A DNA stretch of 64,000 bases from assembly GCA_031082145.1 (NCBI GenBank), contig JAVHLP010000001.1, forward strand, positions 301,831 through 365,830, given 5' to 3'. Numbering within the stretch: position 1 is the first letter of the stretch; every line of letters starts with the position of its first letter. The stretch is from a bacterium (GTDB lineage Bacteria > Bacillota > Sulfobacillia > UBA995). The notes beneath the pieces were generated by a model. The model was given only the letters and a program-made list of their open reading frames with translations. It had not been told where the DNA came from and searched no databases. This document shows positions 4,928-60,212 of this stretch, one piece after another. The position numbers were made by a program, and so were the translations under genes.

Positions 4928-4934
4928 TGGGTAC

Positions 4935-4953
4935 ACTTTAGCACGCCCAAAAA
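4935..4953 (-). promoter_or_regulatory. Sigma-A-type promoter for the T-box/trpB2 transcript.
   Basis: Minus strand TTGACA (4953..4948), 17-nt spacer, TAAAGT (4940..4935). Confidence 0.45.
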
Positions 4954-5038
4954 CCCATGTCAAGCGGCGGCCTGGAACAACCGCAGTCCGAAACGGGTGC
5001 CAGTGAGCCCCGCAGCCAGAGTGGCCGGGACGATACGC

Positions 5039-25239: not shown

Positions 25240-25259
25240 CCCCCGGGGATCCCCTCCGT

Positions 25260-26507
25260 CTAGACGCCGAAGAAGAAGCGGGTATTGCGGACCAGATCGG
25301 CCCGTATGAGCTGGCGCAGCAGGAAGCGGGTGATCACCACGGCGGTGAACATGCTGGCCAGAATGCCCAGGGACAACGTCACCGCAAACCCCTGGATGCG
25401 GTCGGACCCGAACTTGTACAGGACGCCGGCGGCGATCAGGGTGGTCACGTTGGCGTCCAGGATGGCCCGGAGGGCCCGGCTGAAACCGCCCTCCACGGCC
25501 GACCGGACGGTCTTGCCCAGACGTAGTTCCTCCCGGATACGCTCGAAGACGATGACGTTGGCATCCACCGCCATCCCCACCGACAGGATGATGCCGGCAA
25601 TCCCCGGCAGCGTGAGAGCGGCGTTGAGGCCGGCCAGGAGCCCCAGGAGGAGGAACACGTAGATGGTGAGGGCCAGGTTGGCCACCAGGCCGGCTCCCCG
25701 GTAGTACAGGACCATGTAGGCGACCACCAGACTGATGCCGATGAGAGCGGCAGTCTTGCTCCTGGCCAGGGAGTCCTGGCCGAGGGTCGCGCTGACCGCC
25801 CGGGTCTCCACCACCCTGAGTTCCACTGGCAGTGCTCCCGAGTTGAGGACGATGGCTACCCGGTTGGCGGCGTCGAGTGACTCATAGCCGGTAATCTCGG
25901 CACTGCCGCCGGTGATGTGATCCTGCACGATGGGCGACTGCACAACCTCTCCGTCCAGGACGATGTGGATGGGTCGCTGGATCAGGCGGGCGGTAGCGTC
26001 GCCGAACTTCCGGGTGCCCTCCGGGTTCAAGGCCAGCAGCACCACGTTGCGCCCTCGCTCAATGGCCGGTTGGGCTTCCTTGAGGTCGGCCCCGGTGATG
26101 ATGGCCTCATACTCCTCGCCCGCCTGCTTGAGCTCGAGGTTCTGATCGTCCAGGAACTCCAGGAGGGCGGTCCGCCCGATAACGTCCAGCGCCCGATCGG
26201 GATCGCCGATCCCGGGAAGCCCCACGATTATGCGGTCGACCCCGATGCGCTGGACCCGGGTTTCTCCCACGCCAAGCCGGTCCACCCGGAAGCGGATGAT
26301 GTCCACCGCCTTGCGCATGCTGTGGTCGTTGACGGCGGCTTGGGGGCTATCGACCGCCTCCAGGAGCACGTGAATGCCGCCCTGCAGTTCCTCGCCTTGC
26401 TTGATCGAGTCCAGCAGGGGGCGCTCGTAGCCGAAGTACCATGCCCCGCTCAAAACCAAGGCGAACACGACCGCCAGGGTCACCAGGCCCTTGAGGCGTT
26501 CCGGCAT
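25260..26507 (-). CDS. secD: Protein translocase subunit SecD.
   Basis: N-terminal TM, periplasmic P1 domain, C-terminal SecD/SecF-type TM bundle. Immediately upstream of secF. Confidence 0.9.
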   Translation of the reverse strand: MPERLKGLVTLAVVFALVLSGAWYFGYERPLLDSIKQGEELQGGIHVLLEAVDSPQAAVNDHSMRKAVDIIRFRVDRLGVGETRVQRIGVDRIIVGLPGIGDPDRALDVIGRTALLEFLDDQNLELKQAGEEYEAIITGADLKEAQPAIERGRNVVLLALNPEGTRKFGDATARLIQRPIHIVLDGEVVQSPIVQDHITGGSAEITGYESLDAANRVAIVLNSGALPVELRVVETRAVSATLGQDSLARSKTAALIGISLVVAYMVLYYRGAGLVANLALTIYVFLLLGLLAGLNAALTLPGIAGIILSVGMAVDANVIVFERIREELRLGKTVRSAVEGGFSRALRAILDANVTTLIAAGVLYKFGSDRIQGFAVTLSLGILASMFTAVVITRFLLRQLIRADLVRNTRFFFGV

Positions 26508-29334: not shown

Positions 29335-30699
29335 CTAGGCCTCCCAGTAGCGGCGCGCATAGCCCAAGCGCCGGATGGCGTCCCGGAGTCCCAGCATGGC
29401 GGTGTAGGTCGGCAAGACGTAGAGCCGCCCACCCGGCCCGGGCCCTTGCAGGGCAACCCGCAGGGCGTCACCGAGGTCTGAGCACATCGTCACGCCCCGG
29501 TCCAGGCCCGCGTACTTGAGCCTCACGGCCATGGCCTCAGCCCGGGTGCCGGCCACCGTGACCCGATCGAGCCGGGCCCCTGCCACCAGGCGCTCAAAGT
29601 CCACGTCCCACAGCCAGGAGACATCGGTGCCGTCCGCGTACTTGTTATTGATGGCGATCAGGACGTCGGCGCAGTCGCCATCGCGCAGCAGGATGCGAAT
29701 GACCTCGTTGAACCCGGCGGGGTTCTTCACCAAGATCAGGAGGACTTCCCGGCCGTCTACGGCCAACCGCTCCATCCGGCCGAAGGAGGCGGTGAAGGCG
29801 GCCAACCCCTCTTCCACCGCCTGCCAGGGCAGATCCAGTGCATCGGAGCAGGCCACCGCGGCCAAGGCGTTGTAGACGTTGTACATGCCCGGCAGGGGTA
29901 CGGCCAACTCAACCGGTCCCCGGCCGGTACGGACGGCCAGCAGCGATCCCGCGCCGGCACCCCCCTGCCAGATGCCGGTGACGGCGATATCGGGGACCGG
30001 CCGGCCGTCGCCGCAACCGGGGCACCGGTAGTGCCCCAGGTGCCCGTAAGTGACTGCCAGGTACCGGAAAGGAAGCTCGCAACGGGAGCAGTAGCGGATC
30101 TCGCGGGCGGGGTGATGCTCGCCGGGATCGGCATCGGCCTCGACCCCGTAGAACGTGATCGGCCCCCGCCGGGCACCGGCCAAGCCGGCAACCAGCGGAT
30201 CGTCGGCGTTGAGGAGGGCCCAGGCCTTGTCGCCGAGCAGCTCGAGGCCCCGTCCCACCAGGGTTACGGTGTGATCCAGCTCCCCGAAGCGGTCGAGTTG
30301 ATCGCGGAAGAAGTTGGTGACGACAATCGCCCGGACCGGCATCTCCCTTACCACTCGAGCCACGCTGGCCTCATCCACCTCGGCGACACCGATCGCCGCC
30401 TTCATCCTCCCCCGCCAATCGCAGGCTTGCAGGTAGGTAGCAGTTATCCCCGAGATCAGGTTGGCGCCGCTGCGGTTGTGGACAACGGTCAGACCGGCCC
30501 GGTTGAGGATGCCGGTCAACATCAGCGCCGTGGTGGTCTTGCCGTTAGTGCCGGTTACCAGCACGGCCCCTGACCGGCACTGCCCGGACAGCCGGGCCAG
30601 GATGCGCGGATACAGGAACAACGCCACCCGGCCGGGCAGGTTGGAGCCGGCGTAGCCCAACGCACGGCAGAGCTTGATCAGGAGCTTGCTCAAGAGCAC
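29335..30699 (-). CDS. murT: Lipid II isoglutaminyl synthase ligase subunit MurT (Mur-ligase family with C-terminal DUF1727).
   Basis: TGTNGKTTT P-loop, Mur ligase central domain, Cys4 ribbon CSRCE...CPGCG, paired with gatD. GTG start at 30699. Confidence 0.8.
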   Translation of the reverse strand: MLLSKLLIKLCRALGYAGSNLPGRVALFLYPRILARLSGQCRSGAVLVTGTNGKTTTALMLTGILNRAGLTVVHNRSGANLISGITATYLQACDWRGRMKAAIGVAEVDEASVARVVREMPVRAIVVTNFFRDQLDRFGELDHTVTLVGRGLELLGDKAWALLNADDPLVAGLAGARRGPITFYGVEADADPGEHHPAREIRYCSRCELPFRYLAVTYGHLGHYRCPGCGDGRPVPDIAVTGIWQGGAGAGSLLAVRTGRGPVELAVPLPGMYNVYNALAAVACSDALDLPWQAVEEGLAAFTASFGRMERLAVDGREVLLILVKNPAGFNEVIRILLRDGDCADVLIAINNKYADGTDVSWLWDVDFERLVAGARLDRVTVAGTRAEAMAVRLKYAGLDRGVTMCSDLGDALRVALQGPGPGGRLYVLPTYTAMLGLRDAIRRLGYARRYWEA

Positions 30700-40960: not shown

Positions 40961-41404
40961 TCACCGGCCTGCCATCTGGTAGAGCATTAGCCGGCGCCCG
41001 AGGGCGCGGATGGCGGCAGCTCGGACCGTGGGGTGGGGATCCTCGGACGCCTGGGCCAGCGCCCGGTCAACCATCCCAACGTCATAATCCGGCTCCCCGG
41101 CGCGGGCCAGCGCTCCAGCCACTACAGCCCGAACCTCAGGCGAAGCGGCAGCGTCACCTAGCTTCGCCAGCAGACTGACCACGCCCTCGTAGTCGGCGAC
41201 CTTGAGCAGGGCCTCGGTCGCAGCCCGGCTTACACTCAGGTCCCTGTCGTTTAGAGCCTCGACCAGAGCGGATAGGGCCGGCGACGGAACGGAGTCCAGC
41301 CGGGCCATTGCCTCGCAGGCCGCGCGGCGCACGATCACCAACGGGTCCTTGACGGCGTTCCGGAGCTTACGAAAAGGAATGATATCCCACACCGGTTCGA
41401 CCAT
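40961..41404 (-). CDS. HEAT-repeat (PBS-lyase-like) protein.
   Basis: Repeated DP/DxxVRxxAxxALxxxG HEAT-like units (DPLVIVRRAACEAMARL, DRDLSVSRAATEALLKV, SPEVRAVVAGALARAG, HPTVRAAAIRALG). ATG at 41404 with GGGAGGG 6 nt upstream. The ORF-track N-terminus is overextended. Confidence 0.6.
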   Translation of the reverse strand: MVEPVWDIIPFRKLRNAVKDPLVIVRRAACEAMARLDSVPSPALSALVEALNDRDLSVSRAATEALLKVADYEGVVSLLAKLGDAAASPEVRAVVAGALARAGEPDYDVGMVDRALAQASEDPHPTVRAAAIRALGRRLMLYQMAGR

Positions 41405-41642
41405 GCCCCGCCCTCCCTTCGGCCCTGGCAACCGGGGCGCCACGGGCCTCGCACGGACTGGAAGGTTCCACCATGCCGGGGCTTGTTCCTGCCGCGCCCG
41501 CAACATGCCCGGGTTGACGGGCCGGGGCGGCCCCCGCTGGGTGCGGAGGCATGCCGTCGTCCGGGCGGAAGGTGCGGCAGGGGATCGGGCAGAATCCAGC
41601 GGTCTGGGCGCGATCGACAAGAAGGCTCGGGGAGGTCAGGTC

Positions 41643-43454
41643 ATGGCCAAGCGGTTGACCCGCCAGCAAGTCCCAGCAGAAGAGACCTGGAACCTGGATG
41701 ACCTGTTCGCATCGACCGAAGCTTGGGAAGCCGAACTGGCTTCCTTGGAGGCCGCGGCAGCCGGCGTGACCGCCTTCAAGGGGAAGCTCGGCGACGGCCC
41801 GGCCGCGCTGCTGGCGTGCCTCGAAGCGGCAGAGGCACTGGAGATCAAGGCCACCCGCATCGCCACCTTTGCCCGGCTCAAGATCGCCGGCGACGGGACC
41901 TGTCCGGCGAACCAGGCTGCGGCCGGCCGGGTAGGCGCCTTACTGGCCAGGTTGGGTGCCGAGTCCTCGTTCGTCAAGTCGGAGATCCTGGAGTTGCCGG
42001 AGGGAGCGATAAACCGGTACCTCGAGGAGGAGCCCGGATTGGCCCCTTTCCGGCGTAAGCTGGAGGAGATCCTCGAGTTGAGGCCCCACCGGCTCACCCC
42101 GGATGCTGAGACCGCGGTGGCCGCATTGGGCGAGGTACTCAACGCTCCTTATACCATCTACAGCCGGGCCAAGAGCAGCGACATGGAGTTCGAGCCCTTC
42201 GTGGACCCAGAGGGACGACAGGTCCCGAACTCCTTTGCCCTGTACGAATCCTGGTACGAACAGTCTCCGCAGGCGGCAGTGCGCCGGGCGGCCTATGCCT
42301 CCTTTGTCCGAGGGCTAGAGCGATACCAGAACACGTTCGCGGCTACCTTCGCCGCCGAGATCGCCAAGAACGTGACCCTCGCCCGCCTCCGGCGTTATCC
42401 ATCGGCAACCCACATGCTGCTGCACCCGCAGCAGGTGCCGCCGGAGACGTACGAGAGGGTCCTGGATATCATCCAGGAGGAACTCGCACCCGTCATGCGC
42501 CGGTACGCGAACCTGCGGCGGAGGGAGCTGGGGCTGGACAAGCTCTACTACTGCGACATCAAGGCCCCCCTGGACCCCGACTACAAGCCGGGCTGCACCT
42601 TCGAAGAGGCGGCGGCCCTGATCGGGGAGGCTCTTGCCGTGCTGGGTCCCGAGTACGGCCAGATCCTGAAGGCTGCCTTCGAGTGCCGCTGGATCGACCG
42701 GGCCGACAACGTTGGCAAGTCAACCGGGGCCTTCTGCTCAACCGCCTATGGAGTCCACTCCTACATCCTCGTGACCTGGACGGAAACCATGCGGTCGGCC
42801 TTCACGCTGGCCCACGAGCTTGGCCACGCGGGCCACTTCATGATCGCCGGCCGCTACCAGCGTCATGCGAATGTCCGTCCCTCCATGTTCTTCACCGAGG
42901 CGCCCTCGACGATGAACGAGATCATCCTCGGCAACCACATCCTGGCCGGTTCGGATGACCCCCGGATCCGCCGCTGGGTGATCATGCAGCTCCTGGGCAC
43001 CTTCCACCACAACTTCGTGACCCACCTCCTGGAGGGGGAACTCCAGCGGCGGATCTACGCCATGGCCGAGGCGGGATTGCCGATCACGGCCAAGGTGCTC
43101 TCCGAGACCAAGGGGGATCTTCTGGCCGCCTTCTGGGGCGACGCGGTGGAGATCGACGACGGCGCCCGGCTCACCTGGATGCGCCAGCCTCACTACTACA
43201 TGGGACTATATCCCTACACCTACGCGGCCGGGCTGGCGGCCGCCGTCGCCGTCTACCAGAGGATCCAGCGGGAGGGCCAGCCGGCGGTGGAGAATTGGCT
43301 CCGGGCCCTGAAGGCCGGCGGCACCCTAAAGCCGATGGAACTCATGCGAGTGGCCGGCGTGGACATGACCGGCCCGGACCCCATCCGGGAGGCCGTGCTC
43401 CTCGTCGGGACACTCGTGGATGAACTGGAGTCGAGCTTCGGGGCAGCCACCTAG
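41643..43454 (+). CDS. pepF: Oligoendopeptidase F (M3B family).
   Basis: HELGHAGHF zinc motif in an M3B-type ~600-aa frame. ATG at 41643 with GGGGAGG 8 nt upstream. The ORF-track N-terminus overlaps the divergent HEAT gene. Confidence 0.85.
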   Translation: MAKRLTRQQVPAEETWNLDDLFASTEAWEAELASLEAAAAGVTAFKGKLGDGPAALLACLEAAEALEIKATRIATFARLKIAGDGTCPANQAAAGRVGALLARLGAESSFVKSEILELPEGAINRYLEEEPGLAPFRRKLEEILELRPHRLTPDAETAVAALGEVLNAPYTIYSRAKSSDMEFEPFVDPEGRQVPNSFALYESWYEQSPQAAVRRAAYASFVRGLERYQNTFAATFAAEIAKNVTLARLRRYPSATHMLLHPQQVPPETYERVLDIIQEELAPVMRRYANLRRRELGLDKLYYCDIKAPLDPDYKPGCTFEEAAALIGEALAVLGPEYGQILKAAFECRWIDRADNVGKSTGAFCSTAYGVHSYILVTWTETMRSAFTLAHELGHAGHFMIAGRYQRHANVRPSMFFTEAPSTMNEIILGNHILAGSDDPRIRRWVIMQLLGTFHHNFVTHLLEGELQRRIYAMAEAGLPITAKVLSETKGDLLAAFWGDAVEIDDGARLTWMRQPHYYMGLYPYTYAAGLAAAVAVYQRIQREGQPAVENWLRALKAGGTLKPMELMRVAGVDMTGPDPIREAVLLVGTLVDELESSFGAAT

Positions 43455-43910: not shown

Positions 43911-45263
43911 CTACCGCAGCAGCTTCACGTAGAGGACCCCGTCGGCATCATACAGCACGCCCTGCCTCGCCCGGACCTTGACCTCGGGGATATCCAGGGC
44001 CAGCCCACCGGTGAACTCAGCCGGGATCTGCAGGGTGAAAGGGCGCCGGTCGCCCTCAAAGCGCAACCGCCCGGGTCGGGTTGCCACCTGCAGGAGTCCG
44101 GTGAGACGGTCCTCCAGCAGCCGCACCCCTCCAAACTCCAACGTGGTTGGCCCAAAGCGGAAACTACAGGGCCCATGGTACAGGAGGATGTGGTTCTTGA
44201 GGGGCTCCACCCGCCGGTGCCCGGTCACCAGCGCCGGGTCAAGGGCCGATACGTCAAAGACGAGCTTGAGGCCTGACGTATGGAATAGCTCGGCCAGCAG
44301 TTGCTCCCGCCGCCCGGCCAGGTCGCGCAACCACTGCCGTTCCTGCAACACTTCCTCGAAGTAGCCATGGCGCTCCTTGGCCCGCAGTAGGACGGCCTCG
44401 TCGTTGTCGCCACCGTCAAAGGCCACCTTGCGCTCCACCAGATCGTCGAGGGACACGGTGGGGCCAAGCTCGGCCGCCCATCCGGGGTACACCCGGTCCA
44501 GGCACAGGGCCAGGGCCATGCCGGTGTGGGCAAACCGCGAGGCTCCCCGGTTCATGGCCCGCAACCCCTCGTAGCGGGAACCCAGGACCTCCTGAAACCC
44601 GGCATGGCCACCCGTCAGCGCTCGGAACGCGGCCGTCGGCCGGTAGTGAGCGGTGGTCGCGGCCAGGAAAGCCCGCAGCTCGATGTACAGCCCCAGGCCG
44701 AGCCGTATCTCGCATGCTTGTTCGACGGCCACCAGGGCGTCGTCCAGGCGCTCCCGCCGCTCCCGGCGGACCAGGGCGAAGGCGGTCAGGGCTTCATCTC
44801 CGGCGCCGCCGGTGAGGAGATCGTGCAACAGCATGCCCTCGATCCGGCCGAGGACGTTGTTGGTGGCCGAGGCCTCGGGGTACCGGCCGGCGGCCCCGGG
44901 GTACGGCGGGACCCGCCCGGCACGGTGGAAGGCAAAGGCCTCGCGCAGGATCAAGCCGACGAACTCAGCCGGTCCCTGGGGGTGCTCGGAGTCCAGAGCG
45001 TTTGTCGTCACCAGGGCGGCGAGAGGGTCGTCACCGGCTTGAGCGGGACCTCGGTAAAGGGGGAGAGCCCACCCGTCGAAGGACCGAAAGCCCTCCCGGG
45101 CGCCGTTGGTCCCTACGAGGTAGCTACAGTCATCACCGGCCAGAAGGATGGGGGTGGAAGCCAGATCCCATCCCGGCCACAAGGGCCCGGCCTGCTCCTC
45201 CAGGTGGTAGGCCTCACCCACACAGGCCAGGGAGGCCGTCTTAGCATCGGATCGGGTGGCCAT
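43911..45263 (-). CDS. Hypothetical protein (450 aa), translationally coupled to the Nudix gene.
   Basis: Long minus-strand ORF with no internal stops. Its stop abuts the Nudix start. No recognisable motif by eye. Confidence 0.5.
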   Translation of the reverse strand: MATRSDAKTASLACVGEAYHLEEQAGPLWPGWDLASTPILLAGDDCSYLVGTNGAREGFRSFDGWALPLYRGPAQAGDDPLAALVTTNALDSEHPQGPAEFVGLILREAFAFHRAGRVPPYPGAAGRYPEASATNNVLGRIEGMLLHDLLTGGAGDEALTAFALVRRERRERLDDALVAVEQACEIRLGLGLYIELRAFLAATTAHYRPTAAFRALTGGHAGFQEVLGSRYEGLRAMNRGASRFAHTGMALALCLDRVYPGWAAELGPTVSLDDLVERKVAFDGGDNDEAVLLRAKERHGYFEEVLQERQWLRDLAGRREQLLAELFHTSGLKLVFDVSALDPALVTGHRRVEPLKNHILLYHGPCSFRFGPTTLEFGGVRLLEDRLTGLLQVATRPGRLRFEGDRRPFTLQIPAEFTGGLALDIPEVKVRARQGVLYDADGVLYVKLLR

Positions 45264-45459
45264 GTCGCCTCCAGGAGATCGCCGTCGGCTATATTCTTGT
45301 CTGGGCCGGGCATAATCCTGCCTTCGGCGGGGCGGACAGAAAGCGGATCCCTGGGCTGTGGCGCGAATTACCAGCCGGCTGAGACCAGGACCCCCTCATG
45401 CGCTCTCCTCCCCGCGATGTATATGACAGGAGCCCCTGGAACAAGGAGGTTATCCTGAC

Positions 45460-48234
45460 ATGCGCACCTACCAGCGTATTCTGGTCTCCGTGCTGGCCGT
45501 GTTGTTCACCTTCTCGCTCGGCCTGAGCGCCTTCGCGGCGCCGGCTTGGAGCCAGGGCGGCTGGATGCCTCCGGGCTTGGCCAAGAAGGCCGACAAGTAC
45601 GGATGGCTTTACTTGGACGCCGACCAGGCCCCCTGGGCCTTTCCCTACCTCGCCGAGTTGACGCTGGCGGGGATCTTCCAGGGAGCCAACGGTTATGTAC
45701 AGCCCAACCAGCCGGTCAAGATCGTGGAGGCCATCGCCCTGTGCGTCCGACTCATGGGTGAGGAGGAGTCGGCACTGGCCCGGCCCAACCCGTCCCTCCC
45801 CTACGCGGACGCCCGGCAGATCCCCGATTGGGCCCGTGGCTACGTGGCGGTCGCTCTTGACCGAGGGCTGATCATGCCCCATTCCCGCAACCTTAACCCC
45901 AACCAGGCGGCCGATCGCCTGACGGTAGCGGTGATGGTGGTGCGGGCTATCGGCCGGGAAGGGGAAGCCCTGGCCAGGATGAACCAGCCGCTACCCTTCC
46001 GGGATTCGCCGGCGGTACCCGGGTGGGCCGCAGGCTACCTGGTAGTCGCCCTAGACCTCGGCATCCTCACCGGTTACACCGATCGAACCCTGCAACCCCA
46101 CAAACCCGTCACCCGAGCTGAGATGGCCGCCCTGTTGAGCCGAGCCGGGTACCACCTCGATCTGGTCTCCCCTTCCCGGATCAACGGCCAGGTGGTGGCG
46201 GTCAAGACCACCGACCCGCGGACTCTCACCCTCAAGCATGGGAGCGCCACCTCGACCTACCCGGTGGCGGATTACTGCGCTGTCTACGCCGGAGCCCTGG
46301 AGAAAAGCCTCGCCGACCTCAAGCCCGGTGACCAGGTCAAGGCCTATCTCAACGCCGCCGGCGAGGTCGTGTTGGTATTCATCCAGGCCCAGCAGCTGGT
46401 CCACGAGGGCACGCTGGTGCAGGTGACCCTCCCCGCGGGCAACGCGGCCGGTCATATCACCATCCTGGACGCCCAGGCCGCCCAGTTGAGCTGGGCCCTG
46501 GCCCCCGGCGCCCAGGCCGTCGCCGGCGGCCAGGTCATACCCTTCTCCCAGCTGCCGGCCGGCAGCTGGGTTCGCGTGCACCTGGAGGGCAACCTGGCGG
46601 TCAAGGTCGAACTGGCTACGGCCCAGGCGGTGCGGGGAACGGTCGTGGAGACGGCGACTAACCAGCACGGCCACCCGGCCACGATCAGGCTGCAGCTGGC
46701 CCAGGGCGGGACCGTTACCTACCAGGTCAAGGCGGACGTGCAGGTCACCTACCAGGGCCAGCCCGCCGCCTTCGCCGCCCTCCGCCCCGAGGATCAGGTG
46801 GAAGTCCTGCTCCAGGATGGCAGCGTCTCCCGCATCGACATCCTGGTGAAGACGGCGATGCTTGCCGGCACCGTCGCGTCCACCCAGGTCAACCAGCATG
46901 GCCACCCCTCCGCCGTCACCCTGACCTCGGGCACGACCTACCCGGTGGCGGCCGACGTGACCGTGACCAGCCCCGCCGGGCAGCCCCTGACCTTCTCCGC
47001 ACTGAACGCCGGTGACCAGGTGGAGCTGTATTTGGAGCAGCAGGTTGTGCGGAGGATCCGCGTGCTGGGGCAGTTCACCCTGGTCACCGGCACGGTGGTG
47101 GAGATCGGCCGGAATGCCTTCGGGCATCCCGAGAGCATAGCCCTGCTGCTGGGTAGCGGCAGCCAACAGACCTTCGCCGTAGCCGTCGACGTTCGGGTCT
47201 CCCTGAACGGCGTCCCCATGGAGTTCGCCGGCATCCTCTCCGGCGACCAAGCCAGCCTCAAGCTCCAGGGCGACCTGGTGCGGGAGATCGCCCTCGGCGC
47301 CCGGCCCGCCACCGTAGCCGGCGAGGTGATAGTCCGGACGGTGAACGCCTTCGGCCACCCGAAGTCCATCAGCATCCGGACCAGCGATGGGCAGCAACAG
47401 CAGTTCGCCGTCGCCGTCACCGTCCAGGTCACCTGCGAGGGTAACCCCTCGAGCTTCGTCGATGTGGTAGCCGGCGACCAGGTCGAGCTGACGGTGGAGA
47501 ATGGCAAGGTGACCTTCATCGTCGTGGCCGCTCGTGCCCAGACCATCACCGGAGTCGTTCAAAGCCGGGAACTGAACGCCTACGGGCACCCCCACCGCAT
47601 CACTCTCGAGACGGGCGACCCCTACCCGGTGTCCGCCGCCGTGACCGTAACCCACGGTAGCACCCCCCTGGCTTTCGCCGACCTGCGGCCCGGGGATCGG
47701 GTGGAACTACGCCTGGAGTCGGCTGTGGTGACCAGCGTTAGTGTGCTATCGCGTACCACTGAAGCGGTGGGAGCACTGGTGAGCAAGACCACCAACGCCT
47801 ACGGGCATCCGGCCAGTATCACCCTCCGGATCGACGGCCAGAACCAGACGCTCGCCGTCGCCGCCGGTGTTCAGGTGTACCGCGACGGGAACCCGGCCGC
47901 CTTCTCAACCTTGCAGGTCGAGGACTATGTACGGGCGCTGGTGGAACGCGACCTCGTCACCGTCATCAGCGTGGTCATCCGCGCCGATGCTTTCACCGGA
48001 GTGGTAAAGGGACTCAACTCGTCCGACCTGACGTTGCTGGCCCGGGTGACCGTCGCCGGCCCCGAAGGTCCCCCCTTGACCCTGGACCGCCTGGTGAAGG
48101 TGACCCCCGCCACGGTCATCAGTCGGGGCGGTGAGTCGCTCAGCTTCGCCGACCTCGCCCTGGAGCAGGTCGTCGCCGTGACCGCGCGATGGGAAGACGG
48201 CCGGTGCGTCGCGCTCACCATTAGCGTGAACTGA
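45460..48234 (+). CDS. S-layer-homology (SLH) domain cell-surface protein with ~7-9 tandem ~75-aa repeat domains.
   Basis: AAGGAGG RBS. Signal peptide MRTYQRILVSVLAVLFTFSLGLSAFA. Three SLH units (WAFPYLAELTLAGIFQG..., IPDWARGYVAVALDRGLI..., VPGWAAGYLVVALDLGILTGY). Then repeats sharing N(Q/A)(H/F/Y)GHPxxIxL...V...V...V......G.P..F..L..GD.V.L. Confidence 0.8.
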   Translation: MRTYQRILVSVLAVLFTFSLGLSAFAAPAWSQGGWMPPGLAKKADKYGWLYLDADQAPWAFPYLAELTLAGIFQGANGYVQPNQPVKIVEAIALCVRLMGEEESALARPNPSLPYADARQIPDWARGYVAVALDRGLIMPHSRNLNPNQAADRLTVAVMVVRAIGREGEALARMNQPLPFRDSPAVPGWAAGYLVVALDLGILTGYTDRTLQPHKPVTRAEMAALLSRAGYHLDLVSPSRINGQVVAVKTTDPRTLTLKHGSATSTYPVADYCAVYAGALEKSLADLKPGDQVKAYLNAAGEVVLVFIQAQQLVHEGTLVQVTLPAGNAAGHITILDAQAAQLSWALAPGAQAVAGGQVIPFSQLPAGSWVRVHLEGNLAVKVELATAQAVRGTVVETATNQHGHPATIRLQLAQGGTVTYQVKADVQVTYQGQPAAFAALRPEDQVEVLLQDGSVSRIDILVKTAMLAGTVASTQVNQHGHPSAVTLTSGTTYPVAADVTVTSPAGQPLTFSALNAGDQVELYLEQQVVRRIRVLGQFTLVTGTVVEIGRNAFGHPESIALLLGSGSQQTFAVAVDVRVSLNGVPMEFAGILSGDQASLKLQGDLVREIALGARPATVAGEVIVRTVNAFGHPKSISIRTSDGQQQQFAVAVTVQVTCEGNPSSFVDVVAGDQVELTVENGKVTFIVVAARAQTITGVVQSRELNAYGHPHRITLETGDPYPVSAAVTVTHGSTPLAFADLRPGDRVELRLESAVVTSVSVLSRTTEAVGALVSKTTNAYGHPASITLRIDGQNQTLAVAAGVQVYRDGNPAAFSTLQVEDYVRALVERDLVTVISVVIRADAFTGVVKGLNSSDLTLLARVTVAGPEGPPLTLDRLVKVTPATVISRGGESLSFADLALEQVVAVTARWEDGRCVALTISVN
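46150..48231 (+). repeat. Tandem coding repeats (~225-231 nt unit) inside the SLH surface-protein gene.
   Basis: Recurrent protein blocks TNQHGHPATIRL / VNQHGHPSAVTL / RNAFGHPESIAL / VNAFGHPKSISI / LNAYGHPHRITL / TNAYGHPASITL, each followed by a GD(Q/R)VEL motif at matching spacing. Confidence 0.7.
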
Positions 48235-48341
48235 CCGCGACCCCAGTGCCGGATGTCAGGGGCCTCCCTCCGAGGGGCCCCTTGGCCACGGGGAGGACAG
48301 GGGCCGGACACCGGGAATAGGGAGGGAGAGGAGGCGAGCTC

Positions 48342-49550
48342 ATGCCCGCCCGTGAGCGGCTCTATTCCGACCTGGCCCGCCGCCCGGCCAGTCCGGCCCT
48401 GGCCGAGCTGTTCAAGCTCACCGAACGGCCCGATGTCATCTCCTTCGCCGGGGGGTTTCCCTCGCCAGACATGTTCCTGCCGGAGGAAGCCCGGGCGATC
48501 ACCCGCCGGCTTCTGGCCGAGGAACCGGCGGCGGTCCTCGGCTACAGCCCCACTCCCGGGTTCTCCGAGTTCCGCGAGTTCTTGGCCGCTCGCCAGTCCC
48601 GCCAGGGCATGGCTGCCACCGGCGATGAAATCCTGGTGACCAGCGGGGCTCTCCAGGGACTGGACCTCCTCTGCCGGGTCTTCCTGGACCGCGGTGACCG
48701 GGTGGTGGTTGAGTCCCCCACTTACCTGGGCGCGCTGACCACCCTGGGCGCCTTCCGGGTGGAACTGACCCCGGTCCCCCTGGACGAGAACGGACTGGAC
48801 ACGGCCCGGCTGGCCGAACACCTGGAGGCGTGGCAGCGGTCGGGCCGGCTCCCCAAGCTCCTGTACACCGTGCCCACTTTCCAAAACCCCTCCGGGCTGA
48901 CCCTTAGCATCCAGCGGCGCCGGCACCTCCTGGAGTTGGCGGAGGCGTACGGCTTCACCATCCTGGAGGACAACGCTTATGGCGAGCTCCGCTTCGACGG
49001 CGACACCGTCCCAACGCTGAAGGCGCTGGACCGGCAGGGCGTGGTCGTCTACCTGGGCACGCTGTCCAAGGTGCTCTCGCCGGGGATCCGCATCGGCTGG
49101 ATCCACGCCGAACACGAGATCATCGAGCGAGCCATCCTGCTCAGGCAAGGCATGGACCAGTGCTCGAACTCGCTCGGGCAACTGCTCGCCCTGGAGTTCG
49201 GGCGACGGGGCCTGATCGAGCGGCAGATCCGCAAGACGGGGAGGCTGCTGGCGGCGAAAGCCGGACTCACCCTGGATCTCCTGGCCCGGGAGTTCCCCGC
49301 CGGGACGGCCTGGACCAAGCCCGAGGGAGGGTTCTACACCTGGGTGACCTTGCCCGGAGACATCGACACCGCCCTCGCCCTGACCCGCTGCATAGAGGAA
49401 GCGAGGGTAGCCTACGTGGCCGGCAGCGCCTTCTACGCCGGTGGGGGCGGCCACAACCAGTTCCGGCTCTGTTATTCCCAGCCGAGCTTGGAGGAGATCA
49501 GGCGGGGAGTGCCCCGGCTGGCCCAGACCCTGGCCGGACTACAGCGGTAG
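48342..49550 (+). CDS. PLP-dependent aminotransferase, 2-aminoadipate/LysN-KAT2-like subfamily (class I).
   Basis: ISFAGGFPSPDMFP N-terminal signature of the AadAT/LysN/MocR-type aminotransferase domain. No HTH. 402 aa. Confidence 0.75.
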   Translation: MPARERLYSDLARRPASPALAELFKLTERPDVISFAGGFPSPDMFLPEEARAITRRLLAEEPAAVLGYSPTPGFSEFREFLAARQSRQGMAATGDEILVTSGALQGLDLLCRVFLDRGDRVVVESPTYLGALTTLGAFRVELTPVPLDENGLDTARLAEHLEAWQRSGRLPKLLYTVPTFQNPSGLTLSIQRRRHLLELAEAYGFTILEDNAYGELRFDGDTVPTLKALDRQGVVVYLGTLSKVLSPGIRIGWIHAEHEIIERAILLRQGMDQCSNSLGQLLALEFGRRGLIERQIRKTGRLLAAKAGLTLDLLAREFPAGTAWTKPEGGFYTWVTLPGDIDTALALTRCIEEARVAYVAGSAFYAGGGGHNQFRLCYSQPSLEEIRRGVPRLAQTLAGLQR

Positions 49551-53042: not shown

Positions 53043-53854
53043 TGGAACTGGCCTGGCACGGTGGTCCGTCGGTGAGCCTCAGGCTGGAAGGCCAGGTGGT
53101 GGTCGTCGATCCCTCGTTGTCCGGCCCGGGCGACTACGGAGACTGGTTCATGCCCAACCGCAACGCCCCCGACCCGGATACCTATCTCCGGGAGTTCCGA
53201 CCAGACGCGGTCCTCATCACCCATGGCCACTTCGACCATTTCGACCTGGAGACGGTCCGACTGCTGGCCCGGACGTGCCGCCCCCTGTTCGGGGGCAGCT
53301 CCGATGTAGTCGCCACCATTGGGCGGCATTTCGCCGAGTTGGAACCTCGGGCGCTGCCATTGGAACCCGGCCGGACCGAACCCCTCTCTCGCAGCCTCAC
53401 CGTCGGCGCCCTGGAGGGGATCCACTGGCTCACCGGAGAGGAGGGTCGACGGGTAGCCGCCCGCTTTGAGGGCCGTCCGGATCGCTGGGGAGTCATGCCC
53501 TGCGGCGGTCCCATGCTCTCCTTTGTCGTGCGGGGAGGGGAGCACCAGATCTACTTCAGCGGCGACACCGAGCTCGAGGGCATTCCCTCGCTGACAGTCA
53601 CGGTAGCCGTCATCAACGTCGGTGGCCCGGTGCGCGATCCCGTCACCAAGCAGCCTGTCCAGTGCATCGCCAGTCCCGGCGACGTGGCCCGGGCCTTGAG
53701 TGAGAGGCTGGCAGCCCGCGTGGTCGTCCCCATCCACTACGACCACCCGGTGTTCCTGGAGCGAGTGGACCCGGGAGACATCGAGGCCCTGCTGCCGGAA
53801 GGCCCGCCGGTGCTCCGCCTTCCGTTCAACCGGTGGGTCAAGGTGGAGCTCTAG
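53043..53854 (+). CDS. MBL-fold metallo-hydrolase.
   Basis: ITHGHFDHFD metal-binding motif. ATG at 53043. The ORF-track upstream extension is antisense to the M24 gene. Confidence 0.7.
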
Positions 53855-53922
53855 CGGGGCAGTCCGCCAGTAGACCGGACGCCGGCGAGGCGCCGGCGTC
53901 CGGGTGGGAGGAGAGGGCGTTT

Positions 53923-55176
53923 TCAGTCCTTAACCTGGAAATCCCGTCCGAGCATGCCGCTCATGTTGAGCACGCCGTCTCGGGTGACCACGACGTCGTC
54001 TTCGATGTTGAAGAAGGGGAGAGTGACTCCGGGGAGCTCAATCGACATCTCGTAGGTGAACATCATGCCCGGCTCAAACACCACCTTGCCCTCCTTGTCC
54101 TGCACCAGCGGCTGGGCGGCGGATGGCACCAGATTGGGCTGCTGGTAAGGCTCGAGCCCGATGCCGTGACCAATGAAGGGAACCCCCCCGATCGCTTGCA
54201 GCACATAGCCCTGGCCGGAGACATAGTCATCAGCGGCGCTCACGACGTCGTCCAGGCACACGCCCGGCTTGATCAGCCGGTCCATCAGCTCGCTCACACC
54301 TCGCCGGCAGGCGTACAAGCGCTCTTCCTCCGGCGTCGGCCGGCGGCCGAGGAATATCCCCCGGTTGACGTCGGACTGGTATCGCTTATACCTGGCTCCG
54401 AGGTCCAAGTGCACCCAGCCCTTGCCGATGGGCCGGTCAACCGCGTCGCAACTCACCAGTTTCATGCCTTCACCCTCGGCCATCACCTGGGCATGGCTGA
54501 TAGCGTCGGCGCCCTCTTCCAGCATGAAGCGCTTGGCCAGCGTGGCGACTTCCAGTTCGTTCATCCCGATCTCGATCAGATCGTAGATCCTCTGCATCGC
54601 CCGGCAGGAGGCAGTCACCGCCACTTTCATGCGTTCTATCTCGAGTTCAGACTTGACCGCCATGATCCGCCACAGGACGCCGGTAGCATCCACCACCGAG
54701 GCCCCCAGATCGTCCTCCAGCCGCTGCTTCAGGGCCATGAACTTGAGGGGGTTGATACCGGCGACCAGGCCCTTTCCCCACTCAGTGCCTATCCTGGCTC
54801 CCCGGCCGATGCCGTAGTCTCTCAGGACGTTCACCAGTTCGAGTTCATCGTCGTAGTACTCCAGCGATGCGTTGGCGGTGGTGTGCAGTCCGACTTCGTC
54901 GGTGTCAAAAGGGCCGAAGCGCTGGCAGTAGACGTCCGCCTCGGGGGTGATGATCACCGTGGACTGAGGGGCCAGCGCGACCGGGGCGTCCATACCCACG
55001 AAGACGAAGCGGGTGCCCGAGAAGTAGAAGACGTTGACGTTCCTGGCCACCAGCAGGGCATCCAATCCCTGTTCGTTCATGATCCGGCGCGCCCGCTCGA
55101 TCCTGTGCCGATGCTCGCTGACGGGGTGTTCCGGATAGGCTGGATCGCAGGTTCGCCTGACGCTTCTCCTCGCCAT
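53923..55176 (-). CDS. M24-family peptidase (creatinase/prolidase type, with creatinase-N domain).
   Basis: N-terminal creatinase/prolidase-N domain plus C-terminal pita-bread (HGIGLEPYQQP). ATG overlaps the stop of the upstream creatininase-family gene by 1 nt. Confidence 0.8.
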   Translation of the reverse strand: MARRSVRRTCDPAYPEHPVSEHRHRIERARRIMNEQGLDALLVARNVNVFYFSGTRFVFVGMDAPVALAPQSTVIITPEADVYCQRFGPFDTDEVGLHTTANASLEYYDDELELVNVLRDYGIGRGARIGTEWGKGLVAGINPLKFMALKQRLEDDLGASVVDATGVLWRIMAVKSELEIERMKVAVTASCRAMQRIYDLIEIGMNELEVATLAKRFMLEEGADAISHAQVMAEGEGMKLVSCDAVDRPIGKGWVHLDLGARYKRYQSDVNRGIFLGRRPTPEEERLYACRRGVSELMDRLIKPGVCLDDVVSAADDYVSGQGYVLQAIGGVPFIGHGIGLEPYQQPNLVPSAAQPLVQDKEGKVVFEPGMMFTYEMSIELPGVTLPFFNIEDDVVVTRDGVLNMSGMLGRDFQVKD

Positions 55177-55997
55177 CAGATCCTCTCCTTCCGGTCGCCG
55201 CGGTCAGACGCCGCGGGCTTGTTCTCAAACCAGGCGATCAGGCTCCGAACCTCATCGGCCACCAGGTCAACCATGCGCTCGAAGACCTCGGCGCCAAGTT
55301 TGGCCGTAGCCCCCCGGGGGCGGCCAAGGACGCCACTGGCGGACAGGTGGGCCACCGACCCGTGGAAGAGCGGCACGCCGGCATCCTTGAGGGAGGCGGA
55401 ACCTAACCCGATGTCCTCGTCCACCGCGGCGCTCATGTCCACCAGATGGGGAGCAAGGTGAAGCATCCAGGCGGTCTCGATCAGGTTGGCATGGAGACCT
55501 TCCTCGCGGCCGAAGAAAGGCCGGTCACCGGTGGCGTACTGCATGAGGTCGTAGATGGGAACTACGTGGACCCGAGGCAGCCGGCGCTGGATGGCGTGGC
55601 AGGCCAGCCGGATGGTGGGGCTGTTCCCGCCGTGAGAGCATAGCACCGCGATGTTGGTGAAGCCGTGGGCCGCCAGGCTCTCGCAGTAGTCGCCGATGAC
55701 GGCCGCCAGCGTGTCGTGCCCGACGGTGAGGGTGCCGGGAAAGGCCAGGTGGTGTGGTGAGAAACCCGGACGGACGGTCGGCGCGACCAGGGCGTCGCCC
55801 AGCCGACGGGCCACCCCGCAGGCAAGGGCCGTCCCCAGGAGCTCGTCGGTACAGATGGGCAGATGAGGGCCGTGCTGCTCGGTGGAACCAACGGCGACCA
55901 CGGCCGTCCGCCATCCGGCGAGGATCCTGTCTCTTACCTTGGGCCAGGCCATGAACTCGAGCCGGATGTCGCGGTCCAGGTTGTCGAGCACCTGCAT
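55176..55997 (-). CDS. Creatininase-family amidohydrolase (creatinine amidohydrolase / ArfB / MftE superfamily).
   Basis: VVAVGSTEQHGPHLP hallmark. The start is either the ATG at 55997 (MQVLDN) or the upstream ATG at 56039, which overlaps ecfT. Confidence 0.75.
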   Translation of the reverse strand: MQVLDNLDRDIRLEFMAWPKVRDRILAGWRTAVVAVGSTEQHGPHLPICTDELLGTALACGVARRLGDALVAPTVRPGFSPHHLAFPGTLTVGHDTLAAVIGDYCESLAAHGFTNIAVLCSHGGNSPTIRLACHAIQRRLPRVHVVPIYDLMQYATGDRPFFGREEGLHANLIETAWMLHLAPHLVDMSAAVDEDIGLGSASLKDAGVPLFHGSVAHLSASGVLGRPRGATAKLGAEVFERMVDLVADEVRSLIAWFENKPAASDRGDRKERI

Positions 55998-56010
55998 CCC
56001 CTCCAGGTGG

Positions 56011-56859
56011 CTATCCCTCGAAGTGCCAGTGGATGACACCGAGCTGGACCAGGATGACGAGGGCGGCCAGGGTCCCCAAGGTGCTGGCCAGCACCAGCCA
56101 GTCCAGGGGCCGCATGGGCAGTTCTCGGAGATGGGTCCGGCGCCGGTTGGCCAGGTCCAGGCCCCGGGACTGGAAGACTATGGACATGAGGTCCACCGTC
56201 TTCAGCAAGATAAGCATCAGTGGGGTCAGCAGGGACCCGATCTGCCGGATGCGTTCCCGGAACCCGCCCCGGTCGAGTTCGAGCCCTCTCGCCCGCTGGG
56301 CGTTGTAGGTGATCTTCAGGCTGTTGGTGACCATCGGAATGCAGCGCACAGAAGTGGCCGTTATCATCGCTACCGCGTAGGGAACCCCGATACGGTTCAC
56401 GCTGAAGGTGAGATCGGACAGGGGTGTCGACTTCAGCAGCATGATCACGCTGACCAGAGAACTCAACAAGAAGAAGGTCTTGGAGATGGCGAAGTGCACA
56501 CTAACGCTGGTGACGGTGAACCAGGGCGGGATGTGGAAGTAGACGTGACCCATCTGGGTACCCCGGCCGAAGAAGAGGTTCATCAGGCCGAACATGAGCA
56601 CGATGGCGATCACGTAGGGCTTCCGGGCCGCCAGTTCCTTCCCGATGTTGACCCCGCCGGTCATGCACAGGAGATACACCGCCACGAACAGCATGAACCC
56701 CCAGTACCAGGATGTAGACGGCGAGGCTGCGTAGATCCCGAAACCAAGCACGGCAACGACCAGCCCCAGCTTCGTCAACGGGTTCCAGCCATGGAGGTAG
56801 CCCTTTCCCGGCTCGTAGCTGACCAGCGTCTCAGCCATATCGAGGATGTCAAACAACAC
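56011..56859 (-). CDS. ecfT: ECF transporter transmembrane (T) component.
   Basis: CbiQ/EcfT-type TM protein with the conserved ARG...R coupling helix region (AQRARGLELDRG). Start overlaps the ATPase gene stop. Confidence 0.8.
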   Translation of the reverse strand: MLFDILDMAETLVSYEPGKGYLHGWNPLTKLGLVVAVLGFGIYAASPSTSWYWGFMLFVAVYLLCMTGGVNIGKELAARKPYVIAIVLMFGLMNLFFGRGTQMGHVYFHIPPWFTVTSVSVHFAISKTFFLLSSLVSVIMLLKSTPLSDLTFSVNRIGVPYAVAMITATSVRCIPMVTNSLKITYNAQRARGLELDRGGFRERIRQIGSLLTPLMLILLKTVDLMSIVFQSRGLDLANRRRTHLRELPMRPLDWLVLASTLGTLAALVILVQLGVIHWHFEG

Positions 56860-58564
56860 GTCCGATCACCCCCTTGGAGACCAGGAATGGCATGAGTTCC
56901 TCCACTGACCGCACGAACCAGGGAACGCCGGTGTCACTGAGCAGCGAGGTGATCTGGAGGACCTCCGGCAGGTCCAGGCTCGATGCCTGGAGCCGCCCGG
57001 CATCCCCGAAGGCCTCAGCCGTCTGACCCTGCCACACGATCCGCCCCCGGTCCAAGAGGACCACCCGGTTCGCGTGCTTCAGGGCCAGTTCCATGTCGTG
57101 CGTGATCATGATCACGGTCTTGCCCGTGGCGTTGAGGCGGGTGGTGATGTCCATGAGCATCTCCAGGGTGGATTCATCCTGGCCGGTAGTGGGCTCATCC
57201 AGGATCAGCACGTCGGGGTCCATGACCAGGATCGAAGCCAGCGCCACCCGCTGCTTCTGGCCGATGCTGAGCCGCTCGGGGTCACGTTCCTCCATCCCTT
57301 CCAGGCCGACCAGGTCGAGGATCCGGGCGACGGCGTGCTTCACCCGTTCCTCCTCCCAACCCAGGTTGCGGGGGCCGAAACTGACCTCCTTGAAGACGGT
57401 GTCGTTGAAGATCTGGTGGTTGGGATTCTGGAAAATGAAGCCCACCTTGCGAGCCATCTGGGCAACCGTGAAGTTGGCCGATTGCTGGCCGTCGATCAGC
57501 ACCGTCCCCCCGGTGGGCCTCAGGATGCCGATGATGTGCAGCACCATCGTGGACTTGCCGGCGCCGTTCATGCCCAGCAACGCTACGAAGTCACCCCGAC
57601 CGACCGCCAGGTCCACCGAGTCCAGACCCTTGTACCCGTTCTTGAACTGGTGAGTGACGCCGTGGAAGGCGACGATCACCTCGTCCTCGACGGCCGGCGA
57701 TGGGGCTGGCGGTTCCGGAGTGCCGAGACGGGGGAGGACTGCTCCCAGGTCCCGGGGAGACAACGGCAGCATCCCGAACTCAACGCCATGTTCCTCCAAG
57801 AAGAGCGCCACCCGGACGGTCGCCGGGACCTTGATACCACACCGCTCGAGGAGATCCAGGCGGCGCAGGACCTCCCGTGGGGTCCCGGTGGCGATCGCCC
57901 GTCCCTCGTCAATCAGCACCACCCGGTCGACCAGGTCAACCACGGGGCCGATGTCTTTCTCCACCAGCAGCACTGTATGGTTCCCCTTGTTGCAGATGGA
58001 CCGGATGGTCTCGAGCACTGCCCGGGAACTGGCCGGATCGAGGTTCCCCGTCGGCTCGTCGAAGATGAGGACCTCCGGCTCCCTTGCCAGCACGGACGCA
58101 ATGGCCACCCGCTGCTTCTGACCTCCGCTCAGACTGGCGGGAGATCGTTCCTCAAGGTCCCGGAGGCCAACCGTGTCCAGGGCCCAGTCCACCCGCCTGC
58201 GCATCTCGTCCCTGGGCATACCCAAGTTCTCAAGGGACATGGCGATCTCGTCTTCGACCGACATCGCGAACAACTGGATCTCGGGGTCCTGGAAAACGAA
58301 ACCGACCTTGCGGGCCATCACCGACGGGTTACTCTCCAAGACGTTGGTGCCGCACACTGTCACCGCGCCCTCGGCCTTTCCCCCGGTGAGATGTGGCACG
58401 ACCCCGTTCAGGGCGAGCGCGAGTGAGCTCTTACCACACCCGGAGCTGCCCAGGACCAACATGATCTCCCCTGCCCGGACGTCCAGGGTGATGTCCCGCA
58501 AGACCCAGTCGGCGCTATCCTCGTACCGGAATGAGAAGTCCCGCACGGCGATGACCGCATCCAT
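56849..58564 (-). CDS. ECF transporter ATPase with two fused nucleotide-binding domains (EcfA-EcfA', YkoD-like).
   Basis: Two complete ABC units: GSSGCGKSS / LSGGQKQRVAIA / IFDEPT and GMNGAGKST / LSIGQKQRVALA / ILDEPT. 571 aa. Confidence 0.85.
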   Translation of the reverse strand: MDAVIAVRDFSFRYEDSADWVLRDITLDVRAGEIMLVLGSSGCGKSSLALALNGVVPHLTGGKAEGAVTVCGTNVLESNPSVMARKVGFVFQDPEIQLFAMSVEDEIAMSLENLGMPRDEMRRRVDWALDTVGLRDLEERSPASLSGGQKQRVAIASVLAREPEVLIFDEPTGNLDPASSRAVLETIRSICNKGNHTVLLVEKDIGPVVDLVDRVVLIDEGRAIATGTPREVLRRLDLLERCGIKVPATVRVALFLEEHGVEFGMLPLSPRDLGAVLPRLGTPEPPAPSPAVEDEVIVAFHGVTHQFKNGYKGLDSVDLAVGRGDFVALLGMNGAGKSTMVLHIIGILRPTGGTVLIDGQQSANFTVAQMARKVGFIFQNPNHQIFNDTVFKEVSFGPRNLGWEEERVKHAVARILDLVGLEGMEERDPERLSIGQKQRVALASILVMDPDVLILDEPTTGQDESTLEMLMDITTRLNATGKTVIMITHDMELALKHANRVVLLDRGRIVWQGQTAEAFGDAGRLQASSLDLPEVLQITSLLSDTGVPWFVRSVEELMPFLVSKGVIGRVV

Positions 58565-59228: not shown

Positions 59229-60212
59229 TCAGCCGTCCGCGAAGATCCCGTCACGCACCACCTCCTTGCCATCAACCGACAGGGTCGCTCCCACCAGGAT
59301 GGTGTCCACGTGAACGCGACAGGCCGTCCTGCCCTGCAGTTGGGGGATGTTGTTGCCGCCGAAGGCGACGTTGATCCCACCGTCGTAACTCTCCCAATTC
59401 CCGATGTCGGCTCCCCAGATATCGGCCCGGGGGTCCATGCCGAACCCCGTGTGGGCTATCACCCGGGCGTTGGGGTCACCGCTCTCCTCGAAGAAACGAG
59501 CGATGATCTTCGCCTCGCGGCCCTCGCCGGTGGTGCCGACGACTCGCCCGCCGGCCAACTCAAACACCACCGGTGTCTCGACGTGGAAGTTCAGGCGTGG
59601 TCCCAGGTATACAGGGCCGTTGACGATCACCCGGCCCTCGGCTTTGGTTTCCGGTGGGGCGAAAGCGGCCACCACCACGCCGAGGCTATCCCAGTCGCCA
59701 GCATGGGTCACGCATCCGTCCTGGAAGTGGACCGGGCGGTCGTCCCGCTCCACCCTCAGGTCGGTGCCGAGTTGGGACGTGATGCGGATGCGCTGTCCCT
59801 TGAGCCGGGCGGCTAGTCTGGCCGAGCGCTCGCTGATCTCCGGCGTGGGCGGCCGGTGGATGACCGAGGATTCGTCGGCCAGGACCTGGAGAACCCGGGC
59901 TCCCCGCCCCAGGATCTTGTTGGTCGCCTCGGTATACAGCCATGGCTGAGTGGCCAGGTCGAAGACCATGTCGGCCTCCATCATGGCGGCAACCGCAGCG
60001 GCCGGGGGGTCGACCAGCGGGACCCTCTCCGCCTTGCTCAAGACCAGCGTCGCCTGGGCTCCCATGGAGACGGCAGCCGCGTAGAAGGCTTCCACCAGAA
60101 CCTCGTTCTTGGTGGTGTCGGAGAACACCACCACCGCCTCGCCGGCCTTGACCCGGCAGGCCTGGCAGGTCTGCCGGGCGGCCTCCAAGAGCTCGATGTA
60201 CTGCGCCCGCAT
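59229..60212 (-). CDS. M29-fold (aminopeptidase T / NicX-like superfamily) protein.
   Basis: C-terminal HTGFGMD...GGNNIPQLQGRTACRVHVDTIL block aligns with the metal-binding region of the other two M29-like paralogs in this window. 327 aa. Confidence 0.55.
   Translation of the reverse strand: MRAQYIELLEAARQTCQACRVKAGEAVVVFSDTTKNEVLVEAFYAAAVSMGAQATLVLSKAERVPLVDPPAAAVAAMMEADMVFDLATQPWLYTEATNKILGRGARVLQVLADESSVIHRPPTPEISERSARLAARLKGQRIRITSQLGTDLRVERDDRPVHFQDGCVTHAGDWDSLGVVVAAFAPPETKAEGRVIVNGPVYLGPRLNFHVETPVVFELAGGRVVGTTGEGREAKIIARFFEESGDPNARVIAHTGFGMDPRADIWGADIGNWESYDGGINVAFGGNNIPQLQGRTACRVHVDTILVGATLSVDGKEVVRDGIFADG

Follow-up and report, generated by a model that had tools for sequence, protein, structure and literature searches.

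The S-layer proteins of Gram-positive bacteria share a general plan in which a wall anchor is combined with several beta domains on short linkers and with no enzymatic domain (PMC13635256). In Peptoclostridium acidaminophilum the plan takes the form of an SLH-anchored lattice protein with ten beta-barrel (CATH 2.4) subdomains, as has been verified experimentally (bioRxiv 10.1101/2025.04.02.646754). Slp1 of Viridibacillus arvi provides a solved lattice domain of the S-layer, its domain VI (residues 765-844; PDB 9FS9; PMC11410804). Here we describe a gene in a 64,000-nucleotide stretch of bacterial DNA (the window) whose product can be set beside both. We regard it as secure that its product is secreted, is anchored by SLH modules at the surface and consists of nine OB-like barrels; a role at the cell surface, already proposed in an earlier note on this DNA, is well supported.

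Results

The gene, its signal peptide and its wall anchor

The features on which the analysis rests are as follows.

45443..45449, plus strand: Shine-Dalgarno sequence AAGGAGG, 10 nt 5' of the ATG, read from the sequence
45460..48234, plus strand: complete gene including its stop codon, an open reading frame that specifies the SLH-anchored repeat protein of 924 aa
45460..45537, plus strand: Sec-type signal peptide, aa 1-26, from the sequence, with a predicted cleavage site
45607..46164, plus strand: three SLH modules, aa ~50-108, 113-172 and 177-235, the cell-wall anchor
46174..46623, plus strand: units 1-2 (aa 239-311 and 312-388), predicted degenerate OB-like barrels, from unit HMM matches (i-E 2e-8 and 7e-6) and the strand pattern in the full-length model
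46624..47985, plus strand: units 3-8, predicted canonical OB-like barrels with an N-[AQ]-[HFY]-G-H-P beta1-beta2 loop, from motif, HMM and models
47986..48231, plus strand: unit 9 (aa 843-924), predicted C-terminal barrel, from a weak HMM match and the strand pattern in the full-length model

The product is identical to NCBI entry MDQ7793135.1, 'MAG: S-layer homology domain-containing protein [bacterium]', which is encoded on a contig of 587,826 bp. By its sequence the N-terminus, MRTYQRILVSVLAVLFTFSLGLSAFA followed by AP, has the features of a Sec signal peptide, with a basic n-region (MRTYQR), a hydrophobic core and an A-F-A cleavage motif (AFA before AP); in the full-length model residues 1-49 have pLDDT below 50, with a helix at 4-18. 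Pfam SLH (PF00395) matches the protein in three stretches, at 73.5 bits where the cut-off is 20.8. The full-length model contains three SLH helix pairs, and the modelled modules have the pseudo-trimer fold of SLH domains. The signal peptide and three SLH modules that the earlier note had described are therefore confirmed. The canonical TRAE motif occurs in SLH3 only, with KIVE in SLH1 and DRLT in SLH2 at the equivalent places; variants of this motif are known in SpaA. Besides SLH no Pfam model scored above its cut-off on the protein, NCBIfam gave no match, and neither database showed any sign of an enzymatic domain or of a distinct domain at the terminus. With a pI of 5.9 the mature protein is acidic, and V, A, T and L are abundant in it.

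The gene has a strong ribosome-binding site (AAGGAGG) and stands alone. Upstream and on the opposite strand lie genes for a 450-aa protein, which has no Pfam or PDB match, and for a NUDIX hydrolase; downstream are genes for an aminotransferase, an ornithine cyclodeaminase-family protein and an FAD oxidoreductase. The 450-aa and NUDIX pair also adjoins the ortholog P0002, and the relatives P0003 and P0007 have different contexts. We rejected an operon or conserved partner because the divergent pair is common to the close ortholog only. The window holds no other SLH or unit-bearing gene, and on its own this one is an ordinary envelope gene. Elsewhere the window encodes AddAB, SecDF, MurT and a hybrid-cluster protein, besides transport and metabolic functions; its GC content is 67 % and its gene content fits an uncultured organism of Bacillota type. 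A contig scan with the hybrid-cluster protein returned matches of only ~60 %, to unclassified Bacillota MAGs. Two long minus-strand open reading frames antisense to the gene (46051..47655 and 47925..49454) were taken as high-GC artefacts, the plus-strand product being the one with homologs, with matches to Pfam domains and with a confidently modelled fold.

Nine repeated units

Six copies of N-x-x-G-H-P, at residues 401, 478, 552, 629, 706 and 779 and spaced by 73-77 aa, mark units 3-8 (aa 389-465, 466-539, 540-616, 617-693, 694-766 and 767-842). Among 20,000 shuffled sequences none contained two or more copies, and a single copy was present in 0.13 %. Leave-one-out unit HMMs recovered every canonical unit (E 1e-23 to 1e-28), and the unit HMM also matched units 1 and 2, at 2e-8 and 7e-6, even though these had been absent from its training. 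Unit 9 has a longer beta2-beta3 region and no GHP loop; it is conserved in P0002, P0007 and P0018, and that of P0002 is 59 % identical to it.

The earlier note had placed a conserved motif in every unit. The regular spacing holds, but the full GHP motif occurs in only six of the nine, unit 2 having a degenerate N-A-A-G-H and units 1 and 9 none. A second motif, reported as GD(Q/R)VEL in each unit, fares similarly: GD[QR]V is exact in five of the nine (among units 3-8, in 4, 6 and 7) and variant in the rest, and units 3-8 each have [GE]D-x-[VA] where strand beta4 begins. Between canonical units of the protein the amino-acid identity is about 39 %.

The fold of the unit

A single unit (aa 620-696) modelled from a 23-unit alignment gave pLDDT 96.3, with the strand order beta1, beta2, a long beta3, a short strand, a helical turn, beta4 and beta5. 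On this model the unit is a five-stranded closed barrel of OB-fold topology; the OB fold is CATH 2.40.50. The N-A-x-G-H-P motif maps to the beta1-beta2 loop, F-x-x-L to the helical turn and GD[QR]VEL to the start of beta4. The full-length model (pLDDT 79.3) shows this strand pattern nine times, with starts at residues 240, 312, 389, 466, 540, 617, 694, 767 and 843; a linker of about two residues separates beta5 of each unit from beta1 of its successor. The degenerate units at the N-terminal end and the segment at the C-terminal end are thus the same domain as the canonical ones and the array has nine members, the upper end of the seven to nine beta-rich repeats of about 75 aa counted previously. 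With a pTM of 0.38, the full-length model leaves the relative arrangement of the domains undefined.

The nearest solved structure to the unit is an S-layer lattice domain, with a match at the generic OB level; a sequence search of the PDB with the unit profile returned nothing below E 0.4. The earlier note did not recognise the repeat as a standard Ig, fibronectin, cadherin or Big domain, and it is none of these: neither the whole protein nor the 23 units matched Ig, FN3, cadherin or Big models in Pfam, and the unit is a barrel, not a sandwich. The Pfam scan of the 23 units gave sub-threshold matches only, scattered across small-barrel families. We rejected LysM_OapA, OB_cyt-4, TOBE, CusF, Hint and the other Pfam matches, whose totals add up partial sub-threshold matches to the GD-x-V-x-L segment, none of the stretches being significant by itself.

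A large family with a remote link to DUF5666

The unit profile was searched against 1.84 billion cluster representatives, in which the clusters of the family are drawn at 50 % identity, and it matched 3,137 proteins at E<=1e-3, 1,170 at <=1e-10 and 153 at <=1e-30. An N-terminal SLH region followed by units was found in 130 of the 156 family proteins examined, which have 3-11 units each at a median spacing of 76 aa and in which Pfam detects SLH only. Named members come from Symbiobacterium, Abyssisolibacter, Wukongibacter, Maledivibacter, Petroclostridium, Proteiniborus, Geosporobacter, Anaerosolibacter and Koleobacter; the family is also present in many Bacillota MAGs, and Peptostreptococcaceae and other Clostridia genera are included. 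Some members are misnamed 'translation initiation factor IF-1', 'opacity-associated protein A' or 'endo-1,4-beta-xylanase A'.

In several Clostridia relatives DUF5666 (PF18914) scores above its gathering threshold, with up to 55.9 bits and four stretches, and the scoring units sit inside the same periodic arrays. On the window protein itself DUF5666 gave no whole-protein match at E<=1 and did not reach the gathering threshold of 27 bits; its best score among the 23 units was E 0.02. In the relative P0204 the DUF5666 match and the window-derived profile overlap on one unit, and hhalign aligned window-type with DUF5666-scoring units at 94.6 % probability (E 7e-8, 65 columns), with the GHP loop as a 4-residue insertion between beta1 and beta2. 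The overlap and the alignment together argue that the unit is a divergent barrel of DUF5666 type, remotely related to that family. The repeat, which the earlier note thought might be new, has neither a new fold nor a new or rare family: the window protein belongs, as a divergent member, to a large and otherwise ordinary family that is poorly annotated. The unit does lie outside characterised families of known function, its nearest family being a DUF, and to that extent the earlier note stands.

The GHP loop

The GHP loop is carried by five known proteins only (P0001, P0002, P0003, P0007 and P0018). Across their 21 loop-bearing units the residues are N in 19, A in 16, F or Y in 19, G in 21, H in 20 and P in 21. 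Outside the loop, conservation reaches 80 % or more only at core Gly, Val, Pro and Phe residues and at the Asp, shared by the whole family, that starts beta4. There is no second clade-specific ligand residue, nor do the units contain the His/Met/Met/Trp site of CusF. The beta1-beta2 loop of canonical OB folds sits on the ligand-binding face, at a distance from the termini, and we infer that the GHP loop is exposed on the units of the window protein.

Age of the array

The gene had been described as carrying tandem repeats at the DNA level and hence as a likely site of length variation. Neither part is borne out. TRF found no array in the gene, only a 20-nt hexamer microrepeat, and self-BLASTN found no array either. 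The codon-aligned DNA of the canonical units is on average 52 % identical (maximum 58 %; 45 % at third codon positions), and the longest exact word repeated among units is 18 nt. The ortholog P0002 is 54 % identical to the window protein and has the same nine units in unchanged order; every unit finds its best match at the corresponding position of the other array: the diagonal of the unit matrix runs from 47 to 68 %, every value being the maximum of its row, and off-diagonal values from 19 to 51 %. These diagonal maxima indicate that the array is old and its positions individually conserved. Length variation driven by slippage is not supported by these sequences. A contig scan with the repeat region and two metagenome scans found no near-identical strains, the metagenome scans returning distant relatives only, all of them lacking the GHP loop; unit number varies among distant relatives from 3 to 11.

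Discussion

The most likely function of the protein is that of an S-layer-type lattice protein, and we hold this reading, lattice formation included, with moderate confidence. The protein is a secreted envelope protein, its signal peptide being removed upon export by the Sec pathway. Its three N-terminal SLH modules, folded as a pseudo-trimer, would bind a peptidoglycan-linked secondary cell-wall polymer non-covalently and so fix the N-terminus to the wall. The other ~690 residues, nine OB-fold-like barrels of divergent DUF5666 type on linkers of about two residues, would be the self-assembling, lattice-building part of an S-layer-type coat, in which each position of the array makes its own contacts. 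The N-A-x-G-H-P loops, on the canonical binding face of the OB fold, may act as repeated contact or ion-binding points.

Four observations point to a lattice. The architecture, with its wall anchor, several beta domains, short linkers and lack of an enzymatic domain, fits the Gram-positive plan (PMC13635256); the nearest solved structure is a lattice domain; a ten-barrel SLH-anchored S-layer protein has been verified in P. acidaminophilum; and conservation of units by position suits domain-specific lattice contacts better than it suits an interchangeable stalk. The acidic composition of the mature protein, rich in V, A, T and L, and the plan of SLH modules plus units seen in 130 of 156 relatives also speak for this reading. 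The roles offered in the earlier note (adhesin, polymer-binding array, phage receptor) are speculative, and the closest precedents in structure and architecture are lattice proteins of S-layers. Our confidence goes no higher because the structural match does not go beyond the generic OB level and because SLH paralogs are numerous in Bacillota. The inter-domain geometry left undefined by the low pTM and the lack of csaB, the gene indicative of a pyruvylated wall polymer, or other wall-polymer genes among the window ORFs scanned also count against a lattice. So do the four Cys residues of the protein, many S-layer proteins having none. Bacillota genomes usually encode many SLH paralogs, most of which are not the S-layer protein.

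It is this abundance of SLH paralogs serving as accessory surface proteins that lends some weight to a different assignment, one that we find unlikely and yet the most serious competitor of the lattice. Here the nine barrels would be a stiff stalk or spacer, making the protein a fibrillar surface protein or adhesin outside any lattice, whose binding activity would be distributed over the array or confined to its distal units. The N-terminal position of the wall anchor, the beads-on-a-string array with 2-residue linkers and low pTM, and a C-terminal unit 9 that is unlike the others and conserved across the clade are all compatible with such a fibre. In fibrillar adhesins the repeats of the stalk usually resemble one another closely, whereas the units of the window protein share about 39 % identity and are conserved by position. 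The distinct adhesive domain expected at the end of a fibrillar adhesin is also missing, and the closest solved structure, a lattice domain, again favours the S-layer-type lattice.

A doubtful proposal is that the OB faces, the N-A-x-G-H-P loop included, bind polysaccharide, extracellular nucleic acid or metal ions, so that the array would capture or sequester its ligand multivalently at the wall. The loop's place on the canonical binding face invites the idea, but each unit conserves only one His and one Asn, there is neither a Met- or Trp-type CusF site nor a second clade-specific ligand residue, and all the relevant Pfam matches fall below their cut-offs. Nearly all the 3,137 members of the family, moreover, lack the loop, which therefore cannot represent their core function. 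A narrower claim, that the N-A-[FY]-G-H-P insertion is a dedicated metal- or ligand-binding site present 6-7 times per chain, likewise seems improbable. Were it true, the coat would be of S-layer type with a regular grid of His sites, serving metal-dependent lattice assembly or the capture of a particular ion or polymer at the cell surface. The clade-specific loop offers a small, testable handle on coat assembly or ion binding.

The proposal that the gene is a contingency locus, its array growing and shrinking by slippage or recombination to give strain-level length variation in a surface antigen or phage receptor, is very improbable: the range of 3 to 11 units among distant relatives and the capacity of S-layer proteins to act as phage receptors would suit it, but it is largely refuted by the lack of a TRF array, by inter-unit DNA identity of 52 % with no common exact word beyond 18 nt, and by the retention of nine units in the same order in an ortholog only 54 % identical.

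The wider value of the gene lies in annotation. More than 3,000 clusters, drawn at 50 % identity, represent SLH-anchored proteins built from this OB-like unit, and members are named only 'SLH domain-containing' because current Pfam and NCBIfam models mostly miss it. Taken together, the connections of the unit with DUF5666, with the V. arvi lattice domain and with the barrel type recently described in Peptostreptococcaceae suggest that a coat of this kind may be widespread in Bacillota, and they argue for a broader domain model.

Among known systems, the periplasmic metal-binding OB barrels CusF, SilF and the C-terminal domain of SilB are single domains where the window protein has an array, and all sequence matches to them from its units are below cut-off. 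The Bacillaceae proteins Sap, EA1, SbsB and SbsC assemble through Ig-like beta-sandwich domains in place of OB barrels, and SbsC also differs in its anchor, which is not of SLH type. No function is assigned to Pfam DUF5666, and the window units depart from it by the 4-residue GHP insertion. Domain VI of V. arvi Slp1 is 16-17 % identical to the unit, the unit profile gives no sequence match to it, and it occurs singly among domains of different types, in contrast to the nine-fold array described here. The protein of P. acidaminophilum was verified by EM and mass spectrometry, while the window protein is known from sequence and models and is likened to it by description only. On that description the two agree in having an SLH anchor, a long array of small barrels (ten there, nine here), no other domain type and a host in Bacillota.

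Tandem repeats and antisense reading frames in the SLH gene

TRF found a single tandem repeat in the gene for the 924-aa SLH-anchored surface protein, the hexamer TCGCCG, which is present in 3.3 copies at 47405..47424, lies in frame within unit 6 of the protein's OB-like units and is too short to matter. Two long antisense ORFs overlap the SLH gene and its downstream neighbour:

46051..47655, (-), 534 aa
47925..49454, (-), 509 aa

Both most likely arise spuriously from the 67 % GC content rather than being real genes.

Neighbouring genes

A gene of divergent orientation lies beside the SLH gene:

43911..45263, (-), 450-aa protein, transcribed divergently from the SLH gene

Its product had no match in Pfam or in a sequence search of the PDB. 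At the equivalent position beside the ortholog P0002 (locus L001) there is a gene for a 458-aa protein, itself without matches in Pfam, and then a NUDIX gene; this pairing of a 450-aa-type gene with NUDIX was not found beside the family members P0003 or P0007. In the P0003 locus (L002), the gene immediately downstream of the one for the repeat protein encodes a second SLH protein, of 461 aa (3802..5187), and the next a PQQ_2 beta-propeller protein; a YhcN/YlaJ spore lipoprotein gene is located upstream.

Other genes and ORFs in the window

41202..43454, (+), 750-aa ORF as listed, TTG start
53833..55461, (+), 542-aa ORF
55882..56895, (+), 337-aa ORF
59229..60212, (-), 327-aa ORF

Judging from its translation, the product of the first of these resembles a metallopeptidase of the oligoendopeptidase-F type and has a HELGH motif; its N-terminal extension is of low complexity and rich in Arg and Ala, and the true start is probably the internal MAKRLTRQQ. 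The other three had no Pfam family at E<=1e-5, and the 542-aa candidate is overlapped by a 417-aa candidate ORF on the opposite strand.

Further genes are assigned as follows:

8626..15515, (-), AddA/AddB helicase-nuclease
24322..26507, (-), SecD/SecF
29335..30699, (-), MurT (Pfam domains: Mur ligase middle and MurT C-terminal)

Together they are consistent with a Gram-positive-type (Bacillota) host.

Public labels of the family

Three proteins found with the unit profile carry misleading public labels: P0154 is a 'translation initiation factor IF-1' (Symbiobacterium terraclitae), P0010 a 'cell envelope opacity-associated protein A' and P0158 an 'Endo-1,4-beta-xylanase A' (Koleobacter methoxysyntrophicus). 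The mislabelling appears to arise because the unannotated repeat gives weak matches of OB or OapA type.
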